In this document: one piece after another, positions 27,697 to 64,000 of the stretch
Layout of the letters: every line of letters starts with the position of its first letter
Position numbering within the stretch: position 1 is the stretch's first letter
Assembly: GCA_964530225.1 (NCBI GenBank)
Contig: CAZHBA010000104.1
Coordinates: 15,178 to 79,177, forward strand
Origin: an uncultured Rhodospirillaceae bacterium
GTDB lineage: Bacteria > Pseudomonadota > Alphaproteobacteria > UBA6615
Length of the DNA stretch: 64,000 nt
Reading direction: 5' to 3'
Program-made: the position numbers and the translations under genes
The notes under the pieces: model-generated
What the model was told of the DNA's origin: nothing
What the model saw: the letters and a program-made list of their open reading frames with translations, nothing else
The model's database searches: none

Positions 27697-28971
27697 TTAC
27701 AGCTGCCAGCGCCGTAAGCCATCGGGCAGTGTCAGGCCACGCCACATGCCCTTGATGTCAGCGACGACCCCGTCGACCACCGCCAACCGAACCAGGTCGG
27801 CGGCATCGAATTTTCTGTATACATCATGTTGGACGGCACCGATTACCGCATCGTAGCCTTCGGCCCCGTCGAGCCCTGGCAGTAGCTCTAGGTCGTACAG
27901 GGACTTTGCTTCCGCAGCGTCGGCGTGGGGATCGTGAACGTCAACCCGGTGGCCCCGGTCACGCAGAGCACCAATGATATCGATAACCTTGGTGTTGCGC
28001 AGGTCGGGCACGTTTTCCTTAAAGGTTAAGCCGAGCACCAAAACGCGGCCGTTTTCCCGGCCCATTGCGGTATCTATATTGGCGGCAGCAAATGCGCCAA
28101 CACCGTCATTGATGCGCCGACCAGCGAGAATGATCTCAGGATCATGTCCGGCCTGCTTGGCAGCATAGGCCAAATAGTAGGGATCAACCCCGATACAGTG
28201 GCCGCCAACAAGGCCGGGCCGGAAGGATAGGAAATTCCACTTGGTGCTAGCGGCATCGAGAACGTTCTGTACGTCAATACCTAGCCGGCCGAGGATCATC
28301 GCGACTTCGTTGACGAAGGCGATGTTTATATCACGCTGGGCGTTTTCTATAACTTTTGCCGCTTCGGCGGTGCGAATATCGCGGGCCTGATGGATGTCAC
28401 CACCATTGATCGCGCCATAGATGCCCGCCAGTCGTTCGGCGACTTCCGGCGTCTGTCCGGCCACGACTTTCGTAATTTGCTCGACGGTATGTTCGCGGTC
28501 GCCGGGATTGATGCGCTCTGGCGAGTAGCCGAGAAAGAAGTCTTTGCCGCAGGTCAACCCTGACGCGGCCTCCAATGCCGGGCCGCAGATACCTTCCGTG
28601 ACACCCGGATAGACCGTGGATTCATATACGACGATGGCGCCTGGTTTAAGCACCCGGCCCACCGCATCAGTCGCTGCGAGAACCGCGGACAGATCGGGCC
28701 GGTTATCTGCTCCAACCGGCGTAGGAACGGTGATTATTAAGACGCCGCTGCCATCGATTTCGGCCGGGTCGTCGGTAAAACCAAGCGCGCTGGACGCCAA
28801 GGCATCAGACGATATTTCTGCCGTTCGATCGTACCCACCCTTTAGTTCGGTAATTCGTTCGCCGCTTATATCAAACCCAAGCACAGCGCTATGCTTCGCC
28901 AAGGCTATCGCCACCGGCAAACCGACATATCCAAGACCGACAACTACGATTGGCCCCTTGTCGTTCATCAT
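27697..28971 (-). CDS. UDP-N-acetyl-D-glucosamine/galactosamine (or mannosaminuronic) dehydrogenase, nucleotide-sugar dehydrogenase family (WbpA/TviB/VipA-like)
   Basis: N-terminal Rossmann VVVGLGYVGLPVAIALA, catalytic Cys region GGHCIGVDPYYL, C-terminal UDP-binding domain. 424 aa. Confidence 0.8.
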   Translation of the reverse strand: MMNDKGPIVVVGLGYVGLPVAIALAKHSAVLGFDISGERITELKGGYDRTAEISSDALASSALGFTDDPAEIDGSGVLIITVPTPVGADNRPDLSAVLAATDAVGRVLKPGAIVVYESTVYPGVTEGICGPALEAASGLTCGKDFFLGYSPERINPGDREHTVEQITKVVAGQTPEVAERLAGIYGAINGGDIHQARDIRTAEAAKVIENAQRDINIAFVNEVAMILGRLGIDVQNVLDAASTKWNFLSFRPGLVGGHCIGVDPYYLAYAAKQAGHDPEIILAGRRINDGVGAFAAANIDTAMGRENGRVLVLGLTFKENVPDLRNTKVIDIIGALRDRGHRVDVHDPHADAAEAKSLYDLELLPGLDGAEGYDAVIGAVQHDVYRKFDAADLVRLAVVDGVVADIKGMWRGLTLPDGLRRWQL

Positions 28972-29328
28972 TACCTCAACTCGTTTTCAGTACGGCTCTT
29001 AACCGAGGAAGGGTTGCAAGAAAACCACATATGCGCGTATACGCGATAAAATTTGGTGCCGCCATCGACGAGTCGCACGTAAACAGATATTTCACCTGTG
29101 GCAGGGCACATAGCGATCTTTGTAATTGTCAACTAATGCAAGACGACCGGACCCTATGAACCGTCTCGATCGACTGGAAGCCCTCAGTGTCAACATACCG
29201 TGCAAAGCCTATAAACAGGCCCGGCCATTGGCCATGCTATGGTCGAACGGCATGGACTCCAATCTTCCGCCGATGACGCGTGCGGCTACAAGTAAGAACG
29301 CCGGGCTGCGCTCTTCGGGTTATAGGTC

Positions 29329-31125
29329 ATGAACAAAGCCACTAAACCAGCCGCTTCCGCATCAGATCAGCCGGCGGCGACAGAGCAGTTGCGCGTCGTC
29401 ATCGTCGGTCATGGCAAGTCGACCCTGGTTGGGCGCTTGCTCCACGACACCAACATGCTACCCAAAGGTAAGCTCGAAGCTATCGAGGAGATTGAGTTTC
29501 GCCACGCCGAGCGCGAATACGTTTTAATCGACGCGCCGAGCCACCGTGAAATTATCCGTAATATGGTGACCGGCACTTCCAGCGCCGATGCAGTGCTGCT
29601 GCTAATCGATGCCAACCAGGGGACGCGTGGCCAATTGTCCCGCCATGGCTATCTGCTGCAGTTGCTCGGATTCCACCAGGTCGCAGTCATGGTCAACAAG
29701 ATGGACCTAATCGGTTATAGCGAAGCGCGTTTCCGGGAAATTGAGCGCGAATACAGCAGTCACCTCGAAGGCATCGGCGTTACGCCGACCTGCGTTATCC
29801 CAATTTCAGCGCGCAACGGCGACAATGTCGCAACGGCTTCGAAAAATTTAGGCTGGCAGAATGGGTCCACGGTCCTCGATGCGCTGGCCGAGTTTACCCC
29901 GCCGGAGAGCCACGAAGATGCACCGCTACGCTTGCCGCTTCAGGCCGTCGACAAATCCGACGACCGCTGGGTTTTTGTCGGCCGCATCAAAAGCGGTCGG
30001 CTCAGCGTCGGTGACGAACTGTTGTTTTCACCCAATAACCTCACCGCTAAAGTCGCTAGTATCGAAGTTCGGAGCACCAAAGAACCCGTCGCCCAGGCAA
30101 ATGCTGGCTTATCGGTTGGCTTCACTCTGGACGAACAAATATTCGTCGAGCGCGGTGAGATCGCTAGCCATGTCGAGAATCCGCCCATTGAAACCGATGT
30201 ATTTCACGTGCGGTTATATTGGCTGTCTGAGCACGCACTGGCAGCCGGCGATACGGTTACCCTCAAGATCGGTCCCACGTCGGTGCGTGCGACGATCGAT
30301 CAGATCGAACAAGTCATCAACGTCGATGCGCTAACCGACCGGACGGCCGACAAGGTGGTGCGTGACGAGATTGCCGACGTTGTCGTACGCACCGCGCACC
30401 TTGTCGCTATCGACCCCCATCAAACCTTACTGCGCACCAGCTGTGTCGTGTTCACCGACAAGCACAAAACCTTGGGTGGCGGCGTTGTCTCGATGGGCCA
30501 TTACCCAGACCAGCGGAAACTGGTCACGGTGCGCGCAACCAATGTCGTCGCCGAGGCCCATCGGGTAACGACGCCACAACGTATCGATCGTAATCGTCAC
30601 GAGCCTGGCGTTTTGTGGTTCACCGGGCTGTCCGGGTCTGGCAAATCAACCTTGGCGATGACGCTGGAACAACGCCTGTTCGACCAAGGTTATCAGGTCT
30701 ACGTACTCGACGGCGACAATGTGCGCGGCGGCCTCAACGCCAACCTTGGGTTTTCACCTGAAGACCGGGCCGAGAACATTCGCCGGGTCAGTGAGGTGGC
30801 GGCCCTGTTGACCGACGCCGGCGTCATCGTCATTACCGCCTTTATCTCGCCCTACCTCGCCGACCGCGAACGCGCGCGCGCTGTCGCAGGTGATAATTTC
30901 CACGAAATTTATATTGAGGCCGACCTGGAAACTTGTGAGGCGCGCGACCCCAAGGGTCTGTATAAACGCGCGCGCAACGGTGAAATCGGCGAATTCACAG
31001 GTATTTCTGCTCCCTACGAGACGCCCAGTCATCCCAACCTAGTGATCAACACGGCAATAAACGATATCAATACCTGTATCAATCAGCTGGAGGCCTATAT
31101 CACTAAAAATTTCCAGCGGGGTTAA
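29329..31125 (+). CDS. CysN-like (degenerate GTPase) / CysC adenylylsulfate-kinase fusion protein
   Basis: C-terminal APS kinase with P-loop GLSGSGKSTLA and …ITAFISPY…. N-terminal EF-Tu/CysN-like domain with NKMD and SAR motifs. Its P-loop is shortened (VGHGKST), switch I is deleted (~35 aa missing vs CysN) and DxxG is replaced by DAPSH. No cysD partner in the window. Confidence 0.7.
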   Translation: MNKATKPAASASDQPAATEQLRVVIVGHGKSTLVGRLLHDTNMLPKGKLEAIEEIEFRHAEREYVLIDAPSHREIIRNMVTGTSSADAVLLLIDANQGTRGQLSRHGYLLQLLGFHQVAVMVNKMDLIGYSEARFREIEREYSSHLEGIGVTPTCVIPISARNGDNVATASKNLGWQNGSTVLDALAEFTPPESHEDAPLRLPLQAVDKSDDRWVFVGRIKSGRLSVGDELLFSPNNLTAKVASIEVRSTKEPVAQANAGLSVGFTLDEQIFVERGEIASHVENPPIETDVFHVRLYWLSEHALAAGDTVTLKIGPTSVRATIDQIEQVINVDALTDRTADKVVRDEIADVVVRTAHLVAIDPHQTLLRTSCVVFTDKHKTLGGGVVSMGHYPDQRKLVTVRATNVVAEAHRVTTPQRIDRNRHEPGVLWFTGLSGSGKSTLAMTLEQRLFDQGYQVYVLDGDNVRGGLNANLGFSPEDRAENIRRVSEVAALLTDAGVIVITAFISPYLADRERARAVAGDNFHEIYIEADLETCEARDPKGLYKRARNGEIGEFTGISAPYETPSHPNLVINTAINDINTCINQLEAYITKNFQRG

Positions 31126-31128
31126 TCA

Positions 31129-31983
31129 TTGCCGGTTCTAGAAACCTTACGCCGTCTGCGCCACGGTCCGCTTTCGCGCTTCGATCGCATCTGGGTTTCG
31201 CTTGGCCGTCTGGCGCGGTTCGTAATTGCCGCCCTGCCGCGCTCGACAGTGAAACAGCGTATCGGTCCATTCGGACCCTTCCGGCTGGATGCGTACTTCG
31301 CCTTTAGTAATTTCTCCGCCTGGGGCCAGGGCCACAACAACGGCTTCCTGGCAACGGTCGAGGCTTGCCGCGGTAAAAATTGCATATTCGATATCGGCGG
31401 CCATATCGGGCTGGTCACCTTGCCGATGAGCCGAGTCGTTTCGCCGGCCGGCCGTGTCTTTAGCTTCGAACCTGGTAAAGCCAACCTCGAATTCCTGCGG
31501 TTTCACCTGGCACGCAACAACGCCACCAATGTCGAGGTCGTAGACACGCTGGTGGGGGATAGCGACGGCTGGATGGACTTCTTCGAACAAAGCGGCGCCG
31601 CCGGACAGAACTCAGTGGTGTTGAAGAAGAACCAAGAAGCCTATCAACGTGTCCGTCGGCGTCAGGTTACGCTAGACCGATTCTGTGCGGACAGCGAATT
31701 GCGGCCTGAAGTTATCAAGGTTGATGTCGAGGGAGCCGAACTAGCGGTTCTGCGCGGCGCACGCGAAACCCTCCGACGCAACCGCCCAACCCTTTTCCTC
31801 AGCGTCCATCCAACCGAACTTCGCTTGCTAGGCGAATCCGTCGACAGCCTGATGCACGAAATCGAAGATTTGGGGTATGTCTGTCTTGAGATTGGCGGGG
31901 AACCAGTCGCCGCATTTCGCCTGGCAGAGTATTTAATGTTACCGAAGGAACAAGCCAGTGGGCCTGCTAAACAGCGCGATTGA
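31129..31983 (+). CDS. FkbM-family SAM-dependent methyltransferase
   Basis: FDIGGHIGLVT (motif I) and IKVDVEGAELAVLRGA (FkbM hallmark). 284 aa. Confidence 0.7.
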   Translation: MPVLETLRRLRHGPLSRFDRIWVSLGRLARFVIAALPRSTVKQRIGPFGPFRLDAYFAFSNFSAWGQGHNNGFLATVEACRGKNCIFDIGGHIGLVTLPMSRVVSPAGRVFSFEPGKANLEFLRFHLARNNATNVEVVDTLVGDSDGWMDFFEQSGAAGQNSVVLKKNQEAYQRVRRRQVTLDRFCADSELRPEVIKVDVEGAELAVLRGARETLRRNRPTLFLSVHPTELRLLGESVDSLMHEIEDLGYVCLEIGGEPVAAFRLAEYLMLPKEQASGPAKQRD

Positions 31984-32908
31984 AACCCTGCGGGACCGGG
32001 GAGTAGCAGCCCTTTCCAAGGCTTGCTGGGGCGTGGCCCGCACTGCCGTCCTTAAGCTACTTGGCCGGCGCTTCGCGTTGTGCCGTGTCTATGACTACAA
32101 ACTCTGGGTCGACCTGGAGGACAGAGGTATTTCGCGTACTCTAATGTTGTTCGGCGAACGCGAACTGGAACACAAGATTATGCTCGAGCGTGTCGTGCAA
32201 CCTGGTATGAGAATTTTCGATATCGGCGCTAATATCGGCTACTACGCCGTCATGGAAAGCCAACTTACCGGCCCGTCGGGCCAAGTTGTAGCGATCGAAC
32301 CGTCGCCTGAGAACGTCGCGCTGTTGCGGCGCAACCTGGAGCAAAACGCGGTCGACAATGTGGTCGTGCGCGAGGGTGCGGTGTCCAACAGCACCGGCGA
32401 CCGTGAGCTCCATCTGTCCGCCCAAAGCAATCTCAACACCTTCCACGACGTGGGTAGCGGTGCCGTGCATTTGGCGGGAAAGACGGTCTCCGTTCAACTG
32501 AAAACAGTTCCTGCCCTGGCCGAAGAATTTGGCCAGCCGGACATTCTGCGTATGGATGTGGAGGGGCACGAAGTGGAGGTTATCGGCGGCCTGCTAGAGG
32601 CGGCGGAATCCGGAAAGACGCGGCCGATGATCATTTTCGAGACGCATTTGTCGCGCTATACAGACGATCACAGCTTCGAGCCCGTACTGCAGCGTCTGTT
32701 CGCGGCCGGGTACCGAGTCAGCCTCGCGGCTTCCTCATGGAAGCGGGGAACGACGCTGGTGCAGAGCTTCGGCTATCGCGGTGGGGAAACCGTGCGCAGC
32801 GACGGGGTGACGCGCACCTTGTTCGAGGATATCGCACCTGGTGATGCTGTGGACTTAATCTGCCACCGTGGCGGCCTGCGTACCGTGTTGCTGGTGCCAA
32901 CTCCTTAG
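31958..32908 (+). CDS. FkbM-family SAM-dependent methyltransferase (second copy)
   Basis: FDIGANIGYYAV and LRMDVEGHEVEVIGG. 316 aa; overlaps the upstream gene by 26 nt. Confidence 0.7.
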   Translation: MGLLNSAIETLRDRGVAALSKACWGVARTAVLKLLGRRFALCRVYDYKLWVDLEDRGISRTLMLFGERELEHKIMLERVVQPGMRIFDIGANIGYYAVMESQLTGPSGQVVAIEPSPENVALLRRNLEQNAVDNVVVREGAVSNSTGDRELHLSAQSNLNTFHDVGSGAVHLAGKTVSVQLKTVPALAEEFGQPDILRMDVEGHEVEVIGGLLEAAESGKTRPMIIFETHLSRYTDDHSFEPVLQRLFAAGYRVSLAASSWKRGTTLVQSFGYRGGETVRSDGVTRTLFEDIAPGDAVDLICHRGGLRTVLLVPTP

Positions 32909-32922
32909 AAGCGGTCATCCTG

Positions 32923-34020
32923 TTAGTGCGCCACCTCTTCGCAGATGGCAAGCCATGCACGCGCGATCTTCTGGGGTTCCAGTGCCTCGACTTGGCGGCG
33001 GGCCTGTGTACCGAATTTGCAGGCCAGCTCTTCGTCTGCCGCCAACTCCGACATAGCCTCAGCCAATGCCTGCGGATCCTCCGGTGGAACGGCGCGCGTT
33101 CCGGTACCGCCACGCACAGGGTCCAGCGCGCCGGTTATGGTGCCTGCCGTGGCAACCGTCGGACAGCCATGCCCCATCGCCTCTAAAAGGGCGTTGGGCA
33201 TGCCCTCAAAGCGCGACGGCAGCACAAACATCCGACAACGTTGATAGTAGAAGGCCGGGTCCACAAAACCTTCCAAACGCACCCGGTTGGCTAAACCTAG
33301 GCTATCCACCCGCCGTGTCAGAGCTTCACGTTCCGGCCCCTCGCCTAGGATCACGAGGCGCCAATCCTTGTGTCGCGGGGCGAACAGGGCAAACGCATCC
33401 AACAGTACATCGAATCCCTTCTGGCGATTCAGCCTCCCAACCGCCAGCACGAAGGGATTTTCAGCATCGGGTGCCCAGGGATCCAAGTGCGGCGGCAGCA
33501 AATTTGGAATATGTCGAAGCTTCGCTACCGGCACATAACTCTGCATGGCAACGACCGCGCCGGTAGAGTTGGCGGTCACGAGCGCGGCTTTGCGGTAGAG
33601 CATCCGGCGCAGCACGTCCCATATACGCCCAAGTGATTGCCGGGCCGGATCGTTGCGTTCGGAAATTATCACCGGCACGCCCAATCCGATGCAAGCGAGA
33701 ATGGTGAGAATGTTCGTGGTGCCGACGAAAGCGATCACAATATCCGGCTGGGTGCGACGCACCATGGAACGCAGGCCCGCGATCCGCCGGGCATTGCCCA
33801 ACAGAGCACTTAACGCATGGCGCGACGCCCCCCCCAGGCGGGCGGACAGACGTTCCACCCGCGGATCCAAAACAACGGCGTCCGGCCCATTATCGGCATA
33901 GGTAACCACACTGACCTGCTGGTCGAGATCGCAAAGCTCCGTTGCCAACAACGACAAAACACGCTGCGCACCGCCACCACCCAGACTCTCAATGACGAAT
34001 GTCAGATGCAAGTTCGCCAT
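32923..34020 (-). CDS. Glycosyltransferase family 4 (GT-B, 'group 1')
   Basis: N-terminal GGGAQR-type sugar-donor loop and C-terminal EGMPNALLEAMGHGCPTV (E-x7-E region). 365 aa. Confidence 0.75.
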   Translation of the reverse strand: MANLHLTFVIESLGGGGAQRVLSLLATELCDLDQQVSVVTYADNGPDAVVLDPRVERLSARLGGASRHALSALLGNARRIAGLRSMVRRTQPDIVIAFVGTTNILTILACIGLGVPVIISERNDPARQSLGRIWDVLRRMLYRKAALVTANSTGAVVAMQSYVPVAKLRHIPNLLPPHLDPWAPDAENPFVLAVGRLNRQKGFDVLLDAFALFAPRHKDWRLVILGEGPEREALTRRVDSLGLANRVRLEGFVDPAFYYQRCRMFVLPSRFEGMPNALLEAMGHGCPTVATAGTITGALDPVRGGTGTRAVPPEDPQALAEAMSELAADEELACKFGTQARRQVEALEPQKIARAWLAICEEVAH

Positions 34021-35161
34021 AGATATCGGCTAGGATTGCAGCGTGCCGGTGGGCATCGTAACGCTGGTGAGTGGCTGTCCTACCAGCTTCCGCAAGCTTC
34101 GTGCGGAGTTCCCGGTCACCGAGCAGCATCGACAACTGGTCGGCAAAATCACCGGCATCGTCCGGCCCAGCCAGAAGACCAGTTTTCCTGTGCGCGACGA
34201 TATCGTGATGGCCGCCATCATCGGCCGCGATAACCGCGGTGGACAGCAGCATCGCCTCAATTACCGTGCGGCCCAACCCTTCACCGACGCCCGGCGCCAC
34301 CAAAACATCGAAGCCGGCCATATAAGGCAGGATTGGAAAACACGGACCCGGCAGGTGCACCCGGCCTGCCAAATTTTCTCGCTGCAGTTCGGCTTGGCGC
34401 TCAATCGTCAAAAAGCCCCGCGTGTCACCAATCATTACGAAATGGCAATTGTTACCGGCTCTTTGCGTGTGCAATGCGGCAATTTTCAAAAACAGCTCGG
34501 GACGCTTCTGCGCCTCCATATTGCCAACAAAGCCGACAATCGCCGCGTCCGGCGGAATAGAGAGTTCTTGTACCAGGCGGTGGCGGTGCCCAGCCCTGAC
34601 GTCGTTCGACATCTCGGGCAGGTCGAATGGTTCATCAACCACGCGCGCCCGCGCCGCCATCGCCGCGGGCAAACCGCTGCGGCAAAATTCCGAAATCGTG
34701 AGTACACGGGCGGGAAACCAGCTGTACAATCCCAGCCGTCGCGACGGGTTTATTGTGCGCTGGTGCCAAACATGGGCGCAACCGGCGCGCCGGGCCGCCA
34801 GCGTCCAGGTCATATGCATGCGCGCATCATTGGTGTGAATAAAGCGCCAAGAGCGGTTCCGCAGCATCGGCGCCAAGCGAACGGACGCCCGCTGCATGAA
34901 GTACAATTCAATAGGCAGCGGGCCGCCGATAACAACATCATCTGGCGGAAGTGTTTCGAAAGGCGTGCCACGACTCTCGAGATGCGCCGCCAGCAGGCCA
35001 TCGGTCTGGTGCAACCCGACGACCGGTTGAATACCTAAGGCGGGCAGGGCGTCGATTAGCGTCAAGGCCGAGACATGACTACCGCCAAGGCTGTCACCGA
35101 CGAATGGGAACAAAACACTGCCTATGGTGGCTTCCGCCTCCGGCATGTAGCGACCGTTCAT
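33989..35161 (-). CDS. Glycosyltransferase family 4
   Basis: C-terminal …PGVGEGLGRTVIEAMLLSTAVIAADDGG… GT4 signature and N-terminal GGSHVSAL. 390 aa. ATGA overlap with the upstream gene. Confidence 0.75.
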   Translation of the reverse strand: MNGRYMPEAEATIGSVLFPFVGDSLGGSHVSALTLIDALPALGIQPVVGLHQTDGLLAAHLESRGTPFETLPPDDVVIGGPLPIELYFMQRASVRLAPMLRNRSWRFIHTNDARMHMTWTLAARRAGCAHVWHQRTINPSRRLGLYSWFPARVLTISEFCRSGLPAAMAARARVVDEPFDLPEMSNDVRAGHRHRLVQELSIPPDAAIVGFVGNMEAQKRPELFLKIAALHTQRAGNNCHFVMIGDTRGFLTIERQAELQRENLAGRVHLPGPCFPILPYMAGFDVLVAPGVGEGLGRTVIEAMLLSTAVIAADDGGHHDIVAHRKTGLLAGPDDAGDFADQLSMLLGDRELRTKLAEAGRTATHQRYDAHRHAAILADIYGELASDIRH

Positions 35162-56847: not shown

Positions 56848-58197
56848 CTAAACGGAAACAGCCTCCACTCTGGCACCCTGCATTAAATCGATTGTTTGCT
56901 GCCTTTCTCGGGACAGCTTGCGGAAAAAGTCGACATAACGCCGTACGGCGTTGCCGTCCAAGGCAGTAACGTATTTTTCAAACACGGCACGCCGACCCGG
57001 CATCAACTCGTTATCCACCAACGGATTTTCCATACGCAGCGACAGCAATCTTTCGAGCGCCTGTCCGTCCTTGGCGACGTCAAAATACTGGTGGGCGTCG
57101 CGGAAGCGGACGGTCCCGCGGATCGATTGCTGGTCGAACACCGTGAAAACCGGCACGATAACCGGTTTCCCAGCGACACCGGCTTCCAGCAGCGTCGTCG
57201 TGTTCATGCCAAGAATGACATCACTGACCCGGATCGCTTCATGCGCGTCGAGCTGGGCGTTGAACTCCACATTCCCAACCTGCTCCAAATTCAGTCCGGA
57301 TCCGACCAGCGCCTTTTCGACTACGGCCCGCTCATAATTAAGCTGCTTTAGCTTGGGTTTAATGATGAGCCGGTAATTCGGATTGCGAGCGAAAAACCTG
57401 ATGAGTGAGCAGTAGAGTTCTTGAAAATAGGCGTCCGTCTCTTCGGGGCTGGCAACATGTTGAGCGGTCGTGAAGAAGGTCGCGGTCCCTCCATTCGGGG
57501 TTTGGTTAAATGCGCCGGCTTCGATTTCGCGCAAAAAACTATCCATCCGCATACACCCCATCGCCCATGTCTGATCATCGCGCGAATACCCCTCCGCAAC
57601 GCAAAAATCCCGTGCCGAGGTGGTGTGAACCAGGAAGTGGTCGCCCTGAAAACGGCCTAACCTTTCGAAGAAAATCCGCATTTGGCTCTTAATTTTATTC
57701 GATGAAGTTAACAAGCCCTCGCGGAAAATCGTACAATAGGGCACGTTCAGGGCCATCGTAGCGCGGCCTAAATCAATATCCGCCGGCGTGCGGATGTGAA
57801 ACGAGATCACGCTATCGCAGGGCCGTAATCGGAAATAACTTTGCAGCACCCGTCCGTAGAACTTTATTAGCCTCTGTTTGGCTTTCTCGAAGCGGCTACC
57901 GGGAGCGGGGTTCATCACGTCACGATTACGGAACCGGGATCCGTAGAAGGCAAGAACCAACGCGGTTTGCCACCAGACCGGAAACAGATAAACCTCTACC
58001 TCGCCACTGTCGGCAAGCGCCTCAAGATCGCCACGGAATCCAAAATGCGACAAGGCGAGAATCCGCAAAGGCTCCGGCGAACGCATGGGAACGGAACTGG
58101 GCTTACGTACAGTACGCCAAGCAAGAAAGCGCGCCCAAACCAGCGCGGGTAACAAAGTCACGGCGAGACGCAAGACAAATCGAAGAATTAATGTCAT
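56848..58197 (-). CDS. Membrane-anchored TagF/Capsule_synth-like GT-B protein (paralog B)
   Basis: ATG 58197 (MTLILRFVLRLAVTLLPALVW) gives an ATGA overlap with the upstream cytidylyltransferase stop. The longer ORF-track start 58341 would overlap that gene by 148 nt. Paralog of 54669-56033. Confidence 0.45.
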   Translation of the reverse strand: MTLILRFVLRLAVTLLPALVWARFLAWRTVRKPSSVPMRSPEPLRILALSHFGFRGDLEALADSGEVEVYLFPVWWQTALVLAFYGSRFRNRDVMNPAPGSRFEKAKQRLIKFYGRVLQSYFRLRPCDSVISFHIRTPADIDLGRATMALNVPYCTIFREGLLTSSNKIKSQMRIFFERLGRFQGDHFLVHTTSARDFCVAEGYSRDDQTWAMGCMRMDSFLREIEAGAFNQTPNGGTATFFTTAQHVASPEETDAYFQELYCSLIRFFARNPNYRLIIKPKLKQLNYERAVVEKALVGSGLNLEQVGNVEFNAQLDAHEAIRVSDVILGMNTTTLLEAGVAGKPVIVPVFTVFDQQSIRGTVRFRDAHQYFDVAKDGQALERLLSLRMENPLVDNELMPGRRAVFEKYVTALDGNAVRRYVDFFRKLSRERQQTIDLMQGARVEAVSV

Positions 58198-58916
58198 CGC
58201 GACGGGCCAGTTGATGTTTCTTGCGATAGAAAGAATTCGGCCAACAACAGATCGAACGCCGTATCGATATTGGCCTGCACGCCTTCCAGAATTACGGCCC
58301 CGGCCCGGTTCCCCAGAAGCGATCTCTGCTCGGCCAGGCATTCCCGAGTGAAAACATATGCTACGCCGTTACGATGATAGATCGGCACGAGCTGCTGACG
58401 GGCGATAATGGTTGCACCGTCAGGATCGTAGTAGCCGAGACCCGATTCCGAGACCACAAGCTGCTTGAGAGGGTGCGCTTTTGAATCCGTTTCAGAAACG
58501 GTCCAGACGGCGTCGAGCTCTTCCTCGACGAGCTTTCGTACGGCGGACGTTACGTCCTCGGCCTGCCGCAAGGGCGAGGTCGGCTGCAACATGACGACAA
58601 TGTCGTATCGTTTACCGTCAAGTTGCTCCATGCTTTGCAGGGCGTGCATAAGCACGTCGACGTCGCCGATCCGGTCGCCGGAAAGGAATTCTGGCCGGCG
58701 GAAGGGCGCGGCAATGCCGGCCGCCTCAGCGACCCGAGCAATCTCCTCGTGATCGGTGGAAACCACCGCGCAATCAACCCAGGAGAGCTCGCGTAGTACG
58801 TCGCCCACCCGGGCGACCAGCGGCTTGCCACCAATCTCCCGGAGATTTTTCAAGGGAATACCCTTGCTTCCGCCACGCGCCGGAACAACCACAAGACAAG
58901 TTTTGCCGGCAAACAT
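58194..58916 (-). CDS. Acylneuraminate cytidylyltransferase-family protein (PseF-like CMP-pseudaminic acid synthetase candidate)
   Basis: LVVVPARGGSKGIPLKNL…VVSTD…VMLQPTSPLR. 240 aa. This is the second free-standing CTP_transf_3 gene in the locus. Confidence 0.7.
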   Translation of the reverse strand: MFAGKTCLVVVPARGGSKGIPLKNLREIGGKPLVARVGDVLRELSWVDCAVVSTDHEEIARVAEAAGIAAPFRRPEFLSGDRIGDVDVLMHALQSMEQLDGKRYDIVVMLQPTSPLRQAEDVTSAVRKLVEEELDAVWTVSETDSKAHPLKQLVVSESGLGYYDPDGATIIARQQLVPIYHRNGVAYVFTRECLAEQRSLLGNRAGAVILEGVQANIDTAFDLLLAEFFLSQETSTGPSR

Positions 58917-58922
58917 TTCTCG

Positions 58923-60776
58923 TCAGTTTCCGGTCGTGCCGCTTAATGGTGAGGCCTTCCAGATTTCCGTGGACTCGGCGTTCACAAAAGCCTTCACCGC
59001 GCCGTCCTCGATATGGATCACAACATCGGCGATGTTTGCTAAAGCAGGCCTGTGCGTGATCGACACCACTGTAACTTGTGGCGTCAAAGAACGTACGGTC
59101 TGAGCGATTTCCTGCTCTGTTCGGCTGTCTAGAGCGCTGGTGGCTTCATCAAGAATAAGCAGTTGCGGCCGACGCACCAAGGCGCGGGCGATACAGATAC
59201 GCTGACGTTCTCCGCCGGAAAGAGTTACACCGCGTTCACCTACCTGGGCGTCCATCCCGCGGCTAAGCCTAGATATAAAATCTTCGGCTCCGGCGCGATA
59301 AGCAGCATCAGCGATTTCGTCATCCAAATAAATGTCATCGCCCATGGTTATGTTATCGCGGATAGTTCCATTGAACAGAAACACGTCTTGCGGAACATAG
59401 CCGATGGATCGGCGCCACGCGTGCAGCTTGAGCTCCTCGAGCGGCGTATCGTCGATCAGGATTTGGCCTTCCTGCGGCTGAACTAAACCGACTAGCAGAT
59501 CGGCAAGCGTCGTTTTGCCAGCACCAGAACCTCCCAGCAGACACACGAACTCGCCAGCGCAAATCCGCAGGTCCATATTCTTGATGATAGGAGCGGTTGG
59601 CGCCTCGGCCTCGGATGACTGAAAATATAGATCGCCAGCCTCTCCTCCGTCTGTGGAATAGGCGAAGCCAACACCCTCGAACCGAATATCACGATTGAAT
59701 TCGACACCAGAGATATCGCCCATATCTCGCTCCTCATTGGCGCAGACATAGTCGAGCAAACCCCTTACATGGCGGTACGGCATTTCCGTCTGGGAAACCG
59801 ACTGCCACTGCTTCTGAAAGCGCCCAACAGTCTCGAGCGACCGCAGAAACACAAATGCAATGGCTAGCAGAGCCTCAATCGAGGTGGGTTTAAACGTGGA
59901 AAAAACATAAATCACACCAATCAGTGCAACCGTTCGTATGACTTCCTGTGACGAACCAAGGGCCTTCTTAAGCAGCAATAACTTGATCATAACCTGGCGG
60001 AGCACCCGAATATCTTTGTGCAATATCGGCTGCAAGTGCGCCGCCATACCCATGGCCTTCAACGGTTTCATGCCCATCAAGCTGTCGATTAGACGCGTCG
60101 AAAAACTCGACATCAACATGGTCAAACGACGGCTGTTGCGCTGGGTGCTGCCAATAAAGCGGGCCAACAGAAGCAACATTAAAGCGCCGACCGCGATGGC
60201 GCCGAGGGTAACTTCCCAGGAAATGATTAGTGCCGAAATCAGATAGGCAATGGCCTGTAGGGTCGTTGCGACAATGTCGGCAAACTGCGAATAAAGCTGG
60301 CCATAACTTTGTGAGGCATTAGTAATCGCGTTGGAGAGTCGGCCAGTTGGCTGCCGCGTAAACACTTCCCAGCGTGCTTGGAGCAGGCCAGAAATTAAGT
60401 CGCGTCTTATTTCCTCGACCGCTTGCGATTGCGCCACGCTAACCTGAATCTGAGCGACCAAAGTGGCGCCCACTTTGAGAACGATCACAACCAGGATGAA
60501 TCCCAGAAGAGCCTCGAGCGTGAACGGTATCCCATACCTTTCGAAGGCGCTGACAAAGCCTTGAATGACCGGATGGGGTTCTGCCGCCATATCCGCACCC
60601 TCGAGAAACACCCCGATAGCCGGAAGCAACGCGAGGACTCCAATTCCATCCAGAATAGCGGAGATCAATAGAAAGGCGACCGATAGCGACATCTGCACCG
60701 GCCGCGTTCGAGCAACGCCAAATAATAGCGAGACACGGCCCGCCGTCGATATATTCTTGGAGCGTTTAACCGTCAT
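58923..60776 (-). CDS. ABC exporter, fused transmembrane + ATPase domains (MsbA/PglK-like lipid-linked-glycan or lipid flippase family)
   Basis: Six-helix N-terminal TMD. C-terminal NBD with Walker A LLGGSGAGKTT, signature LSGGERQR and Walker B LLILDEATSALD. 617 aa. Confidence 0.8.
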   Translation of the reverse strand: MTVKRSKNISTAGRVSLLFGVARTRPVQMSLSVAFLLISAILDGIGVLALLPAIGVFLEGADMAAEPHPVIQGFVSAFERYGIPFTLEALLGFILVVIVLKVGATLVAQIQVSVAQSQAVEEIRRDLISGLLQARWEVFTRQPTGRLSNAITNASQSYGQLYSQFADIVATTLQAIAYLISALIISWEVTLGAIAVGALMLLLLARFIGSTQRNSRRLTMLMSSFSTRLIDSLMGMKPLKAMGMAAHLQPILHKDIRVLRQVMIKLLLLKKALGSSQEVIRTVALIGVIYVFSTFKPTSIEALLAIAFVFLRSLETVGRFQKQWQSVSQTEMPYRHVRGLLDYVCANEERDMGDISGVEFNRDIRFEGVGFAYSTDGGEAGDLYFQSSEAEAPTAPIIKNMDLRICAGEFVCLLGGSGAGKTTLADLLVGLVQPQEGQILIDDTPLEELKLHAWRRSIGYVPQDVFLFNGTIRDNITMGDDIYLDDEIADAAYRAGAEDFISRLSRGMDAQVGERGVTLSGGERQRICIARALVRRPQLLILDEATSALDSRTEQEIAQTVRSLTPQVTVVSITHRPALANIADVVIHIEDGAVKAFVNAESTEIWKASPLSGTTGN

Positions 60777-60873
60777 GGTCGCCCTCGCGTTTGAGGCAAC
60801 CCACCAAGAAGGATCCCGCGCACTAGCGCAGAACTAGTGGCAATGGGCGAACGTACCGTTTTTTTAAGGTTGT

Positions 60874-61362
60874 TCATACGACTCTAATGTGACTGAGCGG
60901 TGTCGTGACCTTGACTTGACGACCCATCAGGTGAAGCAAGACCTCGGCACGCCGATGTCCAGGTAGGCGAATAATTACACCGAACTGCTGATCCAGCGGG
61001 CCATCGGCCAGAACGACTTTATCCCCGGCCCGCAGTGAGGGATCTTCTGGCTGAAGCATGATCAGCCCGTCCGCATTTTCACGGCTCATGATTTCCTCGA
61101 CAACACCGGCAGGCACAGCGCTTGGTTTGGGTCCAAACTGCACGAGATTGGCGACGCCAAAAGTACCGTTCACCGACCGCCAGCGCGCCGTTTCAAGATC
61201 CAGTTCCACAAAGAGGTAACGCGGAAATAGCGGGATACGGCGAACGTTCGCTCGGACACCAGCAATATAAGGGCAGTAGCTGCGAAAACCCTGCCGCTGC
61301 AGGTTGATTTCGGCCACCCGCTCTGAGCTTGGCTTCGTCCGGACGACAAACCAGCAGCTCAC
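60874..61362 (-). CDS. NusG-paralog transcription antiterminator (RfaH/UpxY/LoaP-like)
   Basis: GTG 61362 (GGAGA RBS 7 nt upstream) gives (M)SCWFVVRTKPSSERVAEINLQRQGF…, the NGN-domain start typical of NusG paralogs. C-terminal KOW-like segment (…GDKVVLADGPLDQQFGVII…). The 500 nt upstream within the same long ORF are low-complexity Gly/Arg/Cys-rich and not protein-like. GTGA overlap with the regulator gene upstream. Confidence 0.65.
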   Translation of the reverse strand: MSCWFVVRTKPSSERVAEINLQRQGFRSYCPYIAGVRANVRRIPLFPRYLFVELDLETARWRSVNGTFGVANLVQFGPKPSAVPAGVVEEIMSRENADGLIMLQPEDPSLRAGDKVVLADGPLDQQFGVIIRLPGHRRAEVLLHLMGRQVKVTTPLSHIRVV

Positions 61363-62030
61363 TTTAGGTCTCCACGATTTACCAGCCCAGCCCGAGAAAT
61401 CTTCAACAGCCCAGCAGCAAATACATTTTGCTTGCCGAGCCTCTCTGACCACAGGTCGTAACTCTTCTGGGGGGACCGCATATCGCTGATGATAACCGCC
61501 TCCACCGAGTCCAAGTCCACGAGATCGGCAACCACTGGCAGACCCGCAACCCGACCCCCGGCCGCCGAAGCATCTACAATGCCGGTAATTTCCAAGGTGC
61601 TGTCCAGTGCGGTCAGGGCCATAATCTCGGCCAAATCTCCGGCTCCAACCAAGGCAAGCCGTTTTTTTTGATGCTGCTCCGCTAACGCGCAAACTTCCTT
61701 GGCCTGTTCTCGCGCGAGCCGAAAAAATTCCAGCGATGTGGAAAGATACTCCCCCGTCAGCCTTGCTTTTTCCGTAAACCCTATTGGCGTTAAGTAATAG
61801 GCATACCGATTGGCAGGCACTTGCTGGACCTTTACCCAACCTTTCTTGATGCATCTTTTCAGATAAGCGTTGGCGAGGCCCAATGCGATTCCAAGCTCTT
61901 TTGCCAGACTGCGTTGGGAAAGAGTGCTGCTTTCTTCAATCGCGGACAGCATCCCGAGCGTAATCGTTACCTCGTTGGAGGTCTGTTCATCGGCTGTATC
62001 TAGCTCCAGCTTTCTCTTGTTATCGTTCAT
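61359..62030 (-). CDS. Winged-helix transcriptional regulator with C-terminal Rossmann-like domain
   Basis: N-terminal wHTH (…LSQRSLAKELGIALGLANAYLKRCIKKGWV…) and C-terminal …RLALVGAGDLAEIMALTAL…ITGIVD… domain. 223 aa. The start codon lies inside a GTTCA-N5-TGAAC palindrome. Confidence 0.55.
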   Translation of the reverse strand: MNDNKRKLELDTADEQTSNEVTITLGMLSAIEESSTLSQRSLAKELGIALGLANAYLKRCIKKGWVKVQQVPANRYAYYLTPIGFTEKARLTGEYLSTSLEFFRLAREQAKEVCALAEQHQKKRLALVGAGDLAEIMALTALDSTLEITGIVDASAAGGRVAGLPVVADLVDLDSVEAVIISDMRSPQKSYDLWSERLGKQNVFAAGLLKISRAGLVNRGDLK

Positions 62031-62061: not shown

Positions 62062-62325
62062 GTCAAGCGTTGTGCCGTTGTGCGGACAGTCATAATCACC
62101 GCTGCCTTAACACTGTCTTAACTAAGATGTCAGCGAATCATGGTAAGGACCCGCAATGATCATGACTGCCCCAGTTTCATTCTTGGCGCATCGCGCCATG
62201 TTGATTGGTCTGGTAACAAGAGGCAGAGTGGCCCGGGGGATTTCACGCCGAGTAATTTCTATGCTTGAGGTTGACAGAAGCGGCGCGTTAACAAAACACC
62301 CCCTTTACGCACATAAGATAAATCC

Positions 62326-63411
62326 ATGACGAGTGTAAAAATCATCGGAGCCGGGTCGATTGGCAACCACCTGGCGCATGCCGCGCGTAGCAAAAGCTGG
62401 GACGTGACACTTTGTGATATCAACCCCGAGGCCCTGGAACGCACCAAAACATCGATTTATCCGTCACGTTATGACAGTTGGGATAATTCTATCCACCTAA
62501 CCACAATTGATGATGCACCACGCGGAGAATTTGACTGGATTTTCATCGGCACGCCACCGGACGTTCACATGACCCTTGCTCTAGACGCTCTGGAAGAGCA
62601 TCCGCGCGGAATTTTGATCGAAAAGCCACTTGCAACCCCGAACCTCGCCAATTGCCAGGATGTGATCGACAAGGCCACAGAACTCGGCGTCAGAGCATTT
62701 GTTGGCTACGACCACGTCGTTTCCAGTAGCGCCCAAAGGTTCTGCGAACATGCGCGCAATCTGAAGGGCGTCAAAACGCTCGACGTTTCTTTCCGGGAGC
62801 ACTGGCAAGGTATCTTTAACGCCCACCCTTGGCTGTCGGGCCCTTCGGATACTTATCTCGGATTCTGGAAACGCGGCGGTGGCGCTTGCGGAGAGCACTC
62901 GCATGCGCTCAACTTATGGCAGCATTTCGGCCATGTTCTGGGCGCGGGCCGGATTAATGTTGTCTCAGCTATGATGGATTACGTTGAGCGCGACGGGGCA
63001 AGCTATGATCAGCTTGCCTTGATAAACCTTGGGACTGAAACAGGCTTGATCGGACGCGTGGTCCAGGATGTGGTGACACATCCTCCGTTAAAGTGGGCCC
63101 GCCTACAAGGTGACGAGGCAGCGGTCGAATGGCAATGTATCCCCTCGCCTTATCAGGATATCGTGCGAACTAACGGCATCACACCCGACGAGGAAGTGTT
63201 CGCGAAAACACGGCCGCAGGACTTCATACAGGAACTTGACCATCTCGAGCATGTAGTAACCACAGGCGACCTATCGCCGATCGATCTGGAGCGCGGCCTG
63301 GATTCTATGCTGGTAATAGCCGCAGCGCATATTTCCGCCCAGCAGGGTTGTGCCGTTGAGATCAACTATGAAGTGGGATATTCCAGCGAGGCGTTACGGC
63401 CCACCCCGTAA
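62326..63411 (+). CDS. Gfo/Idh/MocA-family NAD-dependent oxidoreductase (sugar-nucleotide dehydrogenase-like)
   Basis: VKIIGAGSIGNHLAHAA Rossmann start and …ILIEKPLA… motif. 361 aa. Confidence 0.65.
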   Translation: MTSVKIIGAGSIGNHLAHAARSKSWDVTLCDINPEALERTKTSIYPSRYDSWDNSIHLTTIDDAPRGEFDWIFIGTPPDVHMTLALDALEEHPRGILIEKPLATPNLANCQDVIDKATELGVRAFVGYDHVVSSSAQRFCEHARNLKGVKTLDVSFREHWQGIFNAHPWLSGPSDTYLGFWKRGGGACGEHSHALNLWQHFGHVLGAGRINVVSAMMDYVERDGASYDQLALINLGTETGLIGRVVQDVVTHPPLKWARLQGDEAAVEWQCIPSPYQDIVRTNGITPDEEVFAKTRPQDFIQELDHLEHVVTTGDLSPIDLERGLDSMLVIAAAHISAQQGCAVEINYEVGYSSEALRPTP

Positions 63412-63430
63412 CGGTGAATCGGAGATTGAA

Positions 63431-64000
63431 ATGATAGCAGACGCGTTGCCATACGACTTCGGCGGCCTTGTCGTATTCGACCTCGCCAACAATCACCAGG
63501 GCGACGTCGATCATGGCTGCAATATTATCCGGACCATGGGCGATCTAGCGCGCAAGCATGGCGTGCGGGCGGCCATGAAGTTTCAATTCCGCCAACTGGA
63601 TAGCTTCATCCACAAGGCCCACCTAAGTGGTAGCGAGAACAAGCACGTCTCACGTTTCCTGTCGACACGGCTGGACCGGGCCGCCGTGCAAAGTCTTTTC
63701 GACGAAGTGAAAACAGCTGGCTTAATATCCATGTGCACGCCCTTCGACGAGGCTTCGGTCGACGTCATCCAGGAAATGGGCTTCGACATTCTAAAGATCG
63801 CCAGCTGTTCCGCGACTGACTGGCCGCTCCTGGAGAAGGCGACCAACTCCGGCCTCCCTATCGTGTGCTCCACCGGTGGCCTGGACCTGTCCCAGATCGA
63901 CGATCTCTATAGCTTCTTTACCCACCGTGGTGTTGACTTTGGCTTGATGCATTGCGTGTCTATCTATCCCACACCTCCAAACATGCTGGAATTAAACCAG
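63431..64000 (+). CDS. Third NeuB-family (sialic-acid-synthase-like) protein, 3'-partial at window edge
   Basis: Open frame from ATG 63431 (GGAG RBS 7 nt upstream) to the end of the window without a stop, so it is absent from the ORF track. …VVFDLANNHQGD… (variant of the EIGINHNG block), …LPIVCSTGG…, …GLMHCVSIYPTP… match NeuB-family block order. Confidence 0.6.
   Translation, partial: MIADALPYDFGGLVVFDLANNHQGDVDHGCNIIRTMGDLARKHGVRAAMKFQFRQLDSFIHKAHLSGSENKHVSRFLSTRLDRAAVQSLFDEVKTAGLISMCTPFDEASVDVIQEMGFDILKIASCSATDWPLLEKATNSGLPIVCSTGGLDLSQIDDLYSFFTHRGVDFGLMHCVSIYPTPPNMLELNQ

Follow-up and report, generated by a model that had tools for sequence, protein, structure and literature searches.

The 64,000-nucleotide stretch of DNA analysed here (the window; positions 15,178 to 79,177 of contig CAZHBA010000104.1, assembly GCA_964530225.1, from an uncultured Rhodospirillaceae bacterium) carries one surface-glycan locus in which three non-redundant modules, each with a NeuB-family synthase and a cytidylyltransferase (CT), are combined with genes for sulfation and methylation. 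We interpret the region as the variable part of an O-antigen-type surface-glycan locus of a marine, Rhodospirillaceae-like host, with three ulosonic-acid modules, and give this interpretation a probability of roughly 0.6. Module 1 is of pseudaminic type, module 2 is a NeuC–NeuB–NeuA-like cassette in a block of low guanine + cytosine (GC) content, and module 3 is built around a NeuB-family synthase fused to a cupin domain (NeuB::cupin).

Pfam and NCBIfam profile scans covered the 30 genes between 27.7 and 64 kb and 20 further open reading frames (ORFs) upstream (1–27.6 kb), 50 in total; NCBIfam results are quoted as bits against the curated equivalog cutoff. The scans recovered almost all of the domain assignments that a preliminary description of this DNA had made by eye, including the sulfotransferase, two FkbM-family and one class-I methyltransferases and the ATP-binding cassette (ABC) exporter (table 1). 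PseB, PseC, the NeuC-type hydrolysing epimerase and the APS (adenosine 5′-phosphosulfate) kinase pass their equivalog cutoffs. A single, mostly co-directional locus is likewise borne out, with 24 minus-strand genes running from 62030 to 32923 in the ORF listing. Independent gene calls altered several models: a 326-amino acid (aa) 'NusG' ORF, previously taken as one gene, resolves into an RfaH-like gene (162 aa) and a MarR-EPS/HTH_24 gene (223 aa; EPS, exopolysaccharide), while shorter starts give 349 aa for NeuB2, 225 aa for the class-I methyltransferase and 449 aa for a '497-aa' protein. The 20 upstream ORFs are housekeeping genes, such as hemC/D, tsaD, gpsA, acs, rsmB and rpe, and also encode GcrA and a Mitofilin/MICOS-like protein, both of which assign the host to the Alphaproteobacteria.

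The nearest named relatives are Rhodospirillaceae metagenome-assembled genomes (MAGs), and one contig, L081, is 100% identical to the window over the 701 nt compared base by base. GCA_035092285.1, ENA ERZ841001, a Tara scaffold and ERZ908531 encode identical proteins and keep their order through both edges of the low-GC block. Because these independent contigs bridge both junctions, the gene order is not the product of binning, and an assembly chimera at the low-GC block is ruled out. Identical contigs were found in Tara Oceans and other marine metagenomes, which identifies the organism as marine.

The three sets of synthase and CT are distinct. Pairwise identities among the NeuB paralogues are 34, 26 and 27%; CT2 and CT3 are 27% identical, and CT3 is 33% identical to the N-terminal domain of the fusion of a CT to an aminotransferase (CT::AT) in module 1. 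Each NeuB and each CT has a different best reference. NeuB3 scores 301 bits against 3g8r (C. violaceum, function unknown) versus 37–83 bits against other solved NeuB-family synthases, and NeuB1 is about equally distant (31–32% identity) from PseI, Neisseria meningitidis NeuB (NmNeuB) and SpsE. At identities of 26–34% for the synthases and 27–33% for the CTs these are not recent duplicates of one type; recent duplication is thus ruled out, and the distinct sets proposed in the preliminary description stand.

Table 1. Features of the surface-glycan locus in order of window position; '>' and '<' give the score in bits relative to the cutoff.
Feature	Coordinates	Strand	Basis
NDP-sugar 6-dehydrogenase, TviB-like, left edge of locus	27697..28971	-	three UDPG_MGDP_dh Pfam domains
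Degenerate CysN-like GTPase :: APS kinase	29329..31125	+	APS_kinase 218 bits; apsK 241.6 > 138.7
FkbM-family methyltransferase 1	31129..31983	+	Methyltransf_21 66 bits
FkbM-family methyltransferase 2	31958..32908	+	Methyltransf_21 77 bits; 29% to first FkbM
GT4 glycosyltransferase a	32923..34020	-	Glycos_transf_1, Glyco_trans_4_4; best NCBIfam PglH 136 bits < cutoff
GT4 glycosyltransferase b	33989..35161	-	Glycos_transf_1 86 bits
364-aa protein, possible glycosyltransferase	35158..36252	-	Glyco_trans_1_2 20 bits < cutoff 25; no NCBIfam match
GT4 glycosyltransferase c	36603..37805	-	Glycos_transf_1 109 bits
PseG-like UDP-sugar hydrolase :: GNAT (candidate PseH function)	37922..39421	-	PseG 146.7; Acetyltransf_3 aa 348-480
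Stand-alone GNAT N-acyltransferase (180 aa)	39411..39953	-	Acetyltransf_3 58 bits
627-aa protein, possibly module 1 transferase	40034..41917	-	no Pfam/NCBIfam match
ATP-grasp ligase, candidate N-acyl/amide-forming	42029..43069	-	ATPgrasp_Ter, PylC-like_N
NeuB1, divergent NeuB-family synthase	43066..44058	-	NeuB + SAF
PIG-L family de-N-acetylase	44095..44823	-	PIG-L 88 bits
CTP_transf_3 :: class-III (GSA-aminomutase-like) aminotransferase (CT::AT), putative PseF-equivalent	44834..46924	-	Pfam, context
GFO/IDH/MocA oxidoreductase 1 (GFO1)	46909..47895	-	Pfam; overlaps CT::AT start
PseC aminotransferase	47892..49133	-	TIGR03588 429.4 > 423.5
PseB inverting UDP-GlcNAc 4,6-dehydratase	49192..50193	-	TIGR03589 491.9 > 407.75
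PAPS-dependent sulfotransferase, first low-GC cassette gene	50747..51658	-	Sulfotransfer_3 44 bits > 27
NeuC-type hydrolysing nucleotide-HexNAc 2-epimerase	51689..52876	-	TIGR03568 407 > 236; independent start
NeuB2, Neu5Ac-type synthase	52842..53891	-	56% to NmNeuB
CT2 cytidylyltransferase, NeuA-like	53888..54628	-	CTP_transf_3 73 bits
GT-B family protein (454 aa), candidate module 2 CMP-sugar transferase	54669..56033	-	paralogy to 449-aa protein
Class-I SAM methyltransferase (225 aa)	56062..56739	-	Methyltransf_25 27.8 bits; independent start
GT-B family protein (449 aa), candidate module 3 CMP-sugar transferase	56848..58197	-	
CT3 cytidylyltransferase	58194..58916	-	CTP_transf_3 82 bits
ABC exporter, fused TMD-NBD (HepA/MsbA/PglK-like)	58923..60776	-	ABC_membrane + ABC_tran
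RfaH-like NusG paralogue (162 aa)	60874..61362	-	TIGR01955 106.7 < 144.5; UpxY 63; L081 gene call
MarR-family EPS-associated regulator (223 aa)	61359..62030	-	HTH_24; TIGR04176 65.8 < 88
GFO/IDH/MocA oxidoreductase 2 (GFO2), first module 3 gene	62326..63411	+	Pfam
NeuB3, N-terminal part of NeuB::cupin running off the window	63431..64000	+	NeuB 95 bits

Judged from its sequences, module 1 (37.9–50.2 kb) is a modified pseudaminic-acid pathway with a divergent synthase. The full pathway described previously is firm for PseB and PseC, while NeuB1 is not a canonical PseI and the PseH and PseF functions are assigned from context. The PseG part of PseG::GNAT aligns over the full length of TIGR03590 at 146.7 bits (cutoff 153.55), and the PseH model gives 23.5 bits on the free-standing GNAT (cutoff 93) and no match on the fused one. 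NeuB1 scores 256 bits on the NeuB_NnaB model and 228 bits on PseI (cutoff 340), both below cutoff; it is 32% identical to the solved PseI 8h2c and 31% to Neisseria NeuB, and keeps the metal-binding His. Its orthologues in two marine contigs share 70% (L095) and 86% (L096) identity with NeuB1 and only 34–36% with PseI. In all three loci this lineage lies between the PIG-L deacetylase and the ATP-grasp ligase, and the ligase is conserved together with PIG-L and NeuB1 in L095 and L096 at 65–86% identity.

The N-terminal domain of CT::AT gives 40 bits on the PseF model (cutoff 206) and 71 bits on KdsB-type models. In the Protein Data Bank (PDB) its best matches are 6oew for the CT domain and, for the aminotransferase domain, glutamate-1-semialdehyde (GSA) aminomutases and C-6′ aminotransferases. 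Genomic relatives of the fusion number at least 595 and are spread over many phyla; their hosts include Rhodospirillaceae, Magnetospirillum, Acidobacteriota, Bacillus, Paenibacillus and Nitrospirota. Of the 80 loci kept for neighbourhood counts (genes within 10 kb), 60 have PseB, 62 have PseC, 55 have a PseG-type gene and 64 have NeuB; only 6–7 have a second CT. This rarity suggests that the N-terminal domain is itself the PseF-equivalent, despite its 40 bits on the PseF model. De novo clustering places an aldo/keto reductase family directly upstream of the fusion in 33 loci and the GFO family in 19, with a PseG-type gene directly downstream in 56. Where CT::AT occurs elsewhere, the synthase is of canonical PseI type in 31 of 33 cases, 41–50% identical to 8h2c. 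The arrangement is almost always an operon of the order PseB–PseC–oxidoreductase–CT::AT–PseG–PseI, and in about 24 loci the two halves of the fusion are separate genes. In the O-antigen cluster of L. pneumophila Sg6/Sg12, PseG, a GSA-like aminotransferase and an acylneuraminate CT are neighbours, listed without functional study (PMC3694923); this is a split version of the arrangement in the window. A search of the literature found no functional study of the aminotransferase half of CT::AT.

PseB and PseC would begin the pseudaminic route from uridine diphosphate N-acetylglucosamine (UDP-GlcNAc), and the PseG half of the PseG::GNAT fusion would remove UDP to give an altrose-type intermediate, with the fused GNAT half probably carrying out the N-acetylation otherwise performed by PseH. 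The PIG-L protein, the ATP-grasp ligase and the extra GNAT may then swap an N-acyl group before condensation, which would account for the divergence of NeuB1, the predicted catalyst for condensing the altered hexose with phosphoenolpyruvate (PEP). Activation of the product would fall to CT::AT, which, with the GFO oxidoreductase encoded upstream, could possibly oxidise and transaminate one more position. Aminoglycoside C-6′ aminotransferases act on an oxidised sugar position, and by analogy the pairing of an oxidoreductase with a fused aminotransferase suggests that module 1 adds or moves an amino group. Compared with the cytidine monophosphate (CMP)-pseudaminic acid pathway of C. jejuni and H. 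pylori, module 1 shares PseB, PseC, a PseG-type hydrolase, GNATs, a NeuB-family synthase and a CTP_transf_3 domain, all encoded co-directionally. It differs in a synthase that is 32% identical to PseI, in the PseG::GNAT fusion, in a CT joined to a class-III aminotransferase beside a GFO oxidoreductase and in the inserted PIG-L and ATP-grasp ligase genes.

Module 2 (50.7–56.7 kb) lies in a block in which GC content falls to 0.485–0.515 over approximately 50.2–57.0 kb, against 0.55–0.64 in the flanks. The block contains the sulfotransferase, NeuC, NeuB2, CT2, the 454-aa protein and the class-I methyltransferase, and it has no counterpart at the same position in relatives whose flanking genes are 74–87% identical to those of the window. 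The cassette was probably acquired, and no repeats, tRNA or Rfam matches above chance mark its edges. A separate NeuC–NeuB–NeuA triad, as described previously, is upheld by the score of NeuC above the TIGR03568 cutoff, by the 56% identity of NeuB2 to NmNeuB over 324 aa and by the CTP_transf_3 domain of CT2. The ATGA coupling reported for the triad applies to the junction of NeuA with NeuB2, whereas NeuB2 and NeuC instead overlap by 14–35 nt. At the GC transition a gap of 554 bp (50194–50746) separates the sulfotransferase gene from PseB; in independent contigs a 77-aa ORF is called there (50344–50577, minus strand).

From sequence comparison, the best inference for the product of module 2 is N-acetylneuraminic acid (Neu5Ac), with legionaminic acid less likely. 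NeuB2 scores 405 bits against 1xuu versus 126 bits against solved PseI, and 363 bits on NeuB_NnaB (TIGR03569, cutoff 400). CT2 is closest in the PDB to NeuA structures 9ftb and 6ifd, at approximately 65 bits, and passes no equivalog cutoff. NeuC has as its best solved relative LegG of A. baumannii, a hydrolysing 2-epimerase of UDP-N,N′-diacetylbacillosamine (UDP-diNAcBac; 5zlr, 206 bits), and this match is the starting point for the alternative that the module makes legionaminic acid from UDP-diNAcBac supplied by a PglF/E/D-like set outside the window. The models leave room for such a product, since TIGR03568 does not separate NeuC from LegG, neither TIGR03568 nor TIGR03569 separates Neu from Leg enzymes in general and NeuB2 falls below the NeuB_NnaB cutoff; relatives also carry a long Polysacc_synt_2 dehydratase just downstream, one of them with DegT and an acetyltransferase as well. 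We nevertheless consider legionaminic acid rather unlikely. NeuB2 shares 56% identity with an authentic Neu5Ac synthase, NeuC is nearly as close to the epimerase domain of human GNE (193 bits) as to LegG, and the cassette lacks LegB, LegC and LegH though it looks self-contained and acquired. PseB and PseC reach only 67 and 197 bits on the LegB and LegC models, well short of the cutoffs, and the window holds no other dehydratase or DegT protein; genes of this kind may be located past its end, as they are in relatives. Neu5Ac is thus favoured by the likeness of NeuB2 to a proven Neu5Ac synthase and by a cassette without LegB/C/H.

With Neu5Ac as the preferred product, NeuC, NeuB2 and CT2 would together yield CMP-Neu5Ac (or, less likely, CMP-legionaminic acid), the 454-aa protein would transfer the sugar, and the sulfotransferase and methyltransferase would modify the glycan. 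The same three enzyme families form a tight cassette in the sialic acid pathways of N. meningitidis and E. coli K1. Unlike those systems, module 2 has no polysialyltransferase, KpsMT or NeuD/NeuE, and instead includes the sulfotransferase, the methyltransferase and an unannotated GT-B-type enzyme; its CT2 is short (246 aa), lacks an esterase domain and reaches approximately 65 bits against known NeuA.

Module 3 runs off the right-hand edge of the window. From its ATG at 63431, NeuB3 is approximately 516 aa in full length; L081 continues the 3′ end of the window by 810 nt, extending NeuB3, and a 100% identical full-length protein on a 96-kb NCBI contig (P0001), called from an earlier start at 537 aa, has NeuB, Cupin_2 and Lyx_isomer domains. 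An exact 44-nt search of metagenome contigs for a further extension gave no match. The third nonulosonic-acid pathway considered possible in the preliminary description is real as a gene set, here recognised as a NeuB::cupin module with a putative nine-carbon product; the context of NeuB3 beyond 64000 is completed for the fusion itself by L081 and P0001, further neighbours being seen in relatives only. The cupin motifs HxH..E..G and PG..H and the NeuB metal-binding His are intact, and the cupin part bears a weak likeness (E 2e-5 to 8e-5) to D-lyxose/D-mannose and mannose-6-phosphate isomerases. The fused architecture is present in all 120 best matches (one per 90%-identity cluster, 58–100% identity).

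In Rhodospirillaceae MAG relatives and distant contigs alike, NeuB::cupin is always preceded by a GFO2 orthologue and followed by a HAD hydrolase. A GFO–NeuB::cupin–HAD–CT cassette occurs in a 1.86-Mb JGI contig (L093) and in a Geobacteraceae MAG, GCA_009773645.1 (L094), with identities to the window of 64–69% for NeuB3, 52–54% for GFO2 and 60–62% for CT3. This conserved order in relatives and distant contigs groups GFO2, NeuB3, the HAD protein and CT3 into one module. In both L093 and L094 the cassette lies beside a legionaminic-type set (a CBS-NTP_transferase, a PglD-like acetyltransferase, HisF/HisH and a second NeuB and CT), so the pairing of the NeuB::cupin module with another nonulosonic pathway recurs. 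L094 also carries a Capsule_synth (KpsC/S-like) gene.

Our best guess, by analogy, is that module 3 makes a 2-keto-3-deoxynonulosonic acid (Kdn)-like acid from a mannose-type substrate. GFO2, NeuB::cupin, the HAD protein just past the window end, CT3 and the 449-aa GT-B protein would make and transfer a third CMP-ulosonic acid. A Kdn-9-phosphate route is known in Bacteroides thetaiotaomicron and vertebrates; a literature search found no relevant description of a NeuB and cupin architecture or of a bacterial Kdn route with such parts. The module shares its predicted four-step logic (isomerase, PEP-condensing synthase, HAD phosphatase and CTP_transf_3 enzyme) with the KdsD–KdsA–KdsC–KdsB pathway to 3-deoxy-D-manno-octulosonic acid (Kdo). 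Unlike that pathway, it joins the putative isomerase, a cupin, and a NeuB-family synthase in one protein, in place of a SIS domain and a DAHP-synthase-fold enzyme, its HAD is of HAD_2 type, and a GFO oxidoreductase is an obligatory partner.

The third set could instead make a 3-deoxy-2-ulosonic acid of another chain length, in which case the locus would encode two true nonulosonic acids. Several features are consistent with this: NeuB3 is 24–34% identical to Neu, Pse and SpsE synthases, reaches 115 and 104 bits on two nonulosonic acid (NulO) synthase models and has no recorded SAF domain match, 3g8r, the nearest solved protein, has no function assigned to it, CT3 weakly matches the KdsB family, and the likeness of the cupin to mannose-type isomerases is faint (E values as above). 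We judge it unlikely, because the best matches of CT3 are CMP-NeuAc synthetases (6ifd, 96 bits; PseF model, 125 bits), joining a mannose-type isomerase to NeuB would suit the needs of a Kdn route and the module sits among legionaminic-type genes in distant genomes.

The 449-aa and 454-aa proteins beside CT3 and CT2 are paralogues (28% identity, E 2e-52) of a GT-B-type family for which there is no Pfam model. A profile search of a 1.84-billion-protein library places 1,919 clusters (at 50% identity) in the family, 517 of them at E <= 1e-30. Each of the two paralogues adjoins a CT, and distant members also adjoin CT or NeuB genes; the best inference from sequence is that both are CMP-sugar transferases. 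An epimerase- or hydrolase-like role is possible for the 449-aa protein on the basis of its structural model. In Tannerella forsythia, Tanf_01245 and TFUB4_00887, of the BFO_1060 family, are genetically validated transferases of pseudaminic and legionaminic acid (Pse/Leg) derivatives (PMC5420450). Both systems place GT-B-type enzymes beside nonulosonic-acid genes, and the window paralogues are weak C-terminal matches to the family's hidden Markov model (HMM; NCBIfam NF046086), scoring 25.3 and 34.0 bits where the cutoff is 200, and over the C-terminal half only, so that they fall outside the family as modelled. Where BFO_1060 has the HP motif, the family found here has an invariant K-P-K.

Where three TagF/KpsS-like transferases had been described, two are these paralogous GT-B enzymes and the third, the 627-aa protein, has no such assignment: profile–profile comparison (hhalign) with the GT-B family gives a probability of 1.5%. 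The 627-aa protein has six homologues only, all within the same Pse-like module, and its AlphaFold model, from an alignment of six sequences, is unusable (pLDDT 38.5). Three of the four GT4/GT1-like glycosyltransferases described earlier are firm GT4 enzymes, the fourth (35158–36252) being a 20-bit match. An orthologue of GT4 c in L095 is 59% identical and adjoins a sulfotransferase.

As the preliminary description had noted, Wzx, Wzy, Wzz, KpsMT and initiating transferase domains are absent from the 50 window ORFs scanned. The sole transporter is a fused ABC_membrane and ABC_tran half-transporter, not a Wzm/Wzt O-antigen exporter; it scores 288 bits on the HepA family, 240 on MsbA and 187 on PglK, all below cutoff, and is 74–78% identical in relatives. 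In relatives with flanking genes 78–87% identical to those of the window, NeuB::cupin is followed by the HAD gene, an AsnB-type amidotransferase, optional bacillosamine-type genes, a GT4 gene and Wzy_C, and then by a WecA/MraY-family Glycos_transf_4 gene, a 638-aa WbpM/PglF-like Polysacc_synt_2 dehydratase and purH. These genes narrow an acceptor previously given as unknown: the relatives' flank, the ABC half-transporter and the RfaH-like factor together point to an undecaprenyl-phosphate-linked glycan. The GT4 enzymes would build its backbone on undecaprenyl phosphate in the cytoplasm, the ABC exporter would carry the lipid-linked glycan across the inner membrane, and the Wzy_C protein, seen in relatives only, would ligate or polymerise it. 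The most likely destination is lipopolysaccharide (LPS) O-antigen. At the position of modules 1 and 2, the Rhodospirillaceae MAGs L086–L089 have an MBOAT acyltransferase, a DHDPS/NanA-like gene and another CT, which shares 32% identity with CT3; conserved flanks thus enclose a hypervariable centre, as in O-antigen serotype loci.

The same genes could place the glycan on proteins, by PglL-type O-glycosylation or on an S-layer or flagellin, and not on lipid A-core. Wzy_C covers PglL-type enzymes as well as WaaL and Wzy, and the Wzy_C protein of the relatives matches no NCBIfam model; the exporter is a PglK/MsbA-like half-transporter and not Wzm/Wzt; the best NCBIfam models for GT4 a are PglH and PglJ; the sole annotated family touching the GT-B paralogues comprises the Pse/Leg transferases of the Tannerella protein O-glycan; and one relative has a bacillosamine-like dehydratase, a DegT protein and a NeuD/PglB-type acetyltransferase. 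The PglH, PglJ and PglK scores are, however, far below cutoffs, and no flagellin, Maf, FlmG or S-layer gene occurs in the window or in the fetched flanks of relatives. In Pseudomonas O-antigen clusters an initiating transferase is followed by a WbpM-like dehydratase, and the flank order resembles this. On balance a protein acceptor appears less likely than LPS, although it is a serious alternative. A capsule or K-antigen of the rhizobial rkp/group-2 type, in place of a lipid-linked oligosaccharide or O-antigen, is very improbable: K-antigens with pseudaminic acid and Kdn are known in Sinorhizobium, and an RfaH-type regulator and a uronic-acid dehydrogenase, both present here, are typical of capsule loci, but KpsM, KpsT, KpsC, KpsS, KpsD and KpsE domains are absent from the window and the flanks of relatives, the relatives carry a WecA-family initiating transferase and Wzy_C, and Capsule_synth occurs only in the distant Geobacteraceae locus.

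Lipid-linked O-antigen as the preferred reading includes a supply of sulfate and uronic acid. The sulfotransferase shows the motifs RTGTT and RQPxxxxxS, and the degenerate CysN::APS kinase fusion would supply its donor, 3′-phosphoadenosine 5′-phosphosulfate (PAPS). The CysN half is degenerate, as described previously: by eye, the P-loop is a shortened VGHGKST, no switch I is left and DxxG reads DAPSH, so the G1–G3 motifs are lost, and the HMM alignment begins only at profile position 75–99. The protein is accordingly not a NodQ-type CysN/CysC bifunctional enzyme, scoring 516 bits on the bifunctional model against a cutoff of 715. At the left edge of the locus, the dehydrogenase at 27697, earlier taken as a plain UDP-glucose dehydrogenase, is instead TviB-like: it scores 373 bits on NCBIfam NDP-sugDHase (cutoff 190) and has TviB as its best model (397 bits, cutoff 592). 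From its sequence it probably converts UDP-HexNAc (HexNAc, N-acetylhexosamine) to UDP-HexNAc-uronic acid and would thereby supply a HexNAc-uronic acid to the glycan. The MarR-family regulator and the RfaH-like antiterminator, for which RfaH (TIGR01955) is the best-scoring of the NusG-family models, would head a minus-strand operon of approximately 29 kb, with a divergent plus-strand operon starting at GFO2.

A number of observations weigh against the interpretation as a whole or parts of it. All sugars are assigned by homology or context, and NeuB1, NeuB2, PseG, the three CTs, RfaH, the MarR-EPS regulator and the ABC exporter all fall short of the equivalog cutoffs of NCBIfam. Only relatives show the HAD gene and the flank with initiating transferase and Wzy_C, the window's own downstream sequence amounting to 810 nt. 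For module 3, the HAD protein has no solved relative in a PDB sequence search, and in L086–L088 (78% relatives) the neighbouring CT shares only 32% identity with CT3. For the 449-aa protein, Foldseek places UDP-GlcNAc 2-epimerases ahead of glycosyltransferases (TM only approximately 0.5), and the protein encoded after the module 3 CT in L093 and L094, tried as a member of the same GT-B family, was rejected by HMM search. The window contains no CysD partner for the CysN-like part. As for transcription, the leaders lack the E. coli ops core GGCGGTAG, and the three matches to it in the window are at chance expectation, although the ops of the host lineage may differ, and a scan for promoters and terminators gave results at chance level.

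Each enzyme family of the locus is known; what differs is the presence of three non-redundant modules in one locus together with a sulfotransferase that has a dedicated PAPS supply. As far as we found, the CT::AT/oxidoreductase variant of the pseudaminic pathway with a non-PseI synthase and the NeuB::cupin module are undescribed. Several NulO pathways per genome or locus are known from the flagellar glycosylation island of Campylobacter jejuni and the NulO cluster of Leptospira, which share with the window more than one set of NeuB and CT in one surface-glycan locus. Unlike these, the window has three sets, including NeuB::cupin, together with an ABC exporter, RfaH, GT4 enzymes, a PAPS supply and a sulfotransferase, and has no flagellar context. 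The combination had been called unusual and probably undescribed. A literature search for gene clusters combining nonulosonic acids with sulfotransferases returned nothing relevant. Multi-module ulosonic-acid loci recur in related environmental contigs, one of them a marine contig with a Pse-like module, a sulfotransferase and methyltransferases. The architecture is therefore a recurring theme without a chemical description and not a one-off.

We suggest only tentatively that two undescribed ulosonic routes, one to a Kdn-like or new acid and one to an additionally aminated nonulosonic acid, are displayed with sialic acid on one sulfated, methylated glycan. If this is true, free-living marine bacteria unite sialic acid mimicry, sulfation and methylation on a single surface polymer, with a bearing on recognition by phages and grazers and on the turnover of marine polysaccharides. 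Mass spectrometry of environmental microbes is reportedly detecting nonulosonic acids more and more, frequently as masses without an assignment, and the locus offers concrete gene sets for part of this chemistry. Its value is mainly as a pointer to two widespread, uncharacterised ulosonic-acid routes, the NeuB::cupin module ranging from Alphaproteobacteria to Geobacteraceae, and to one unannotated GT-B family. Should the products be confirmed, the known routes to sialic-acid-like sugars would grow in number and chemoenzymatic synthesis would gain new enzymes.

Some minor features of the window remain to be mentioned. An Rfam scan gave nothing of note, and the sole tRNA is tRNA-Thr (CGT) at 9958–10033, outside the locus and flanking the low-GC cassette on neither side. 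On the left border of the locus, the gene that follows rpe encodes a heparinase II/III-like protein (553 aa, 25936–27597), which may be part of the locus, perhaps as a glycan lyase, or else a conserved neighbour with a housekeeping role. A conserved element, TCTnTGCTTGAGG...CGnCGCGnTAACA, lies at 62258–62300, approximately 30–85 nt upstream of the GFO2 start, and is also found in L090 (approximately 8830–8870), L086 and L088 amid otherwise diverged intergenic sequence. It may be a promoter, leader or regulator site of the plus-strand operon, or the end of a 57-aa ORF (62156–62329).

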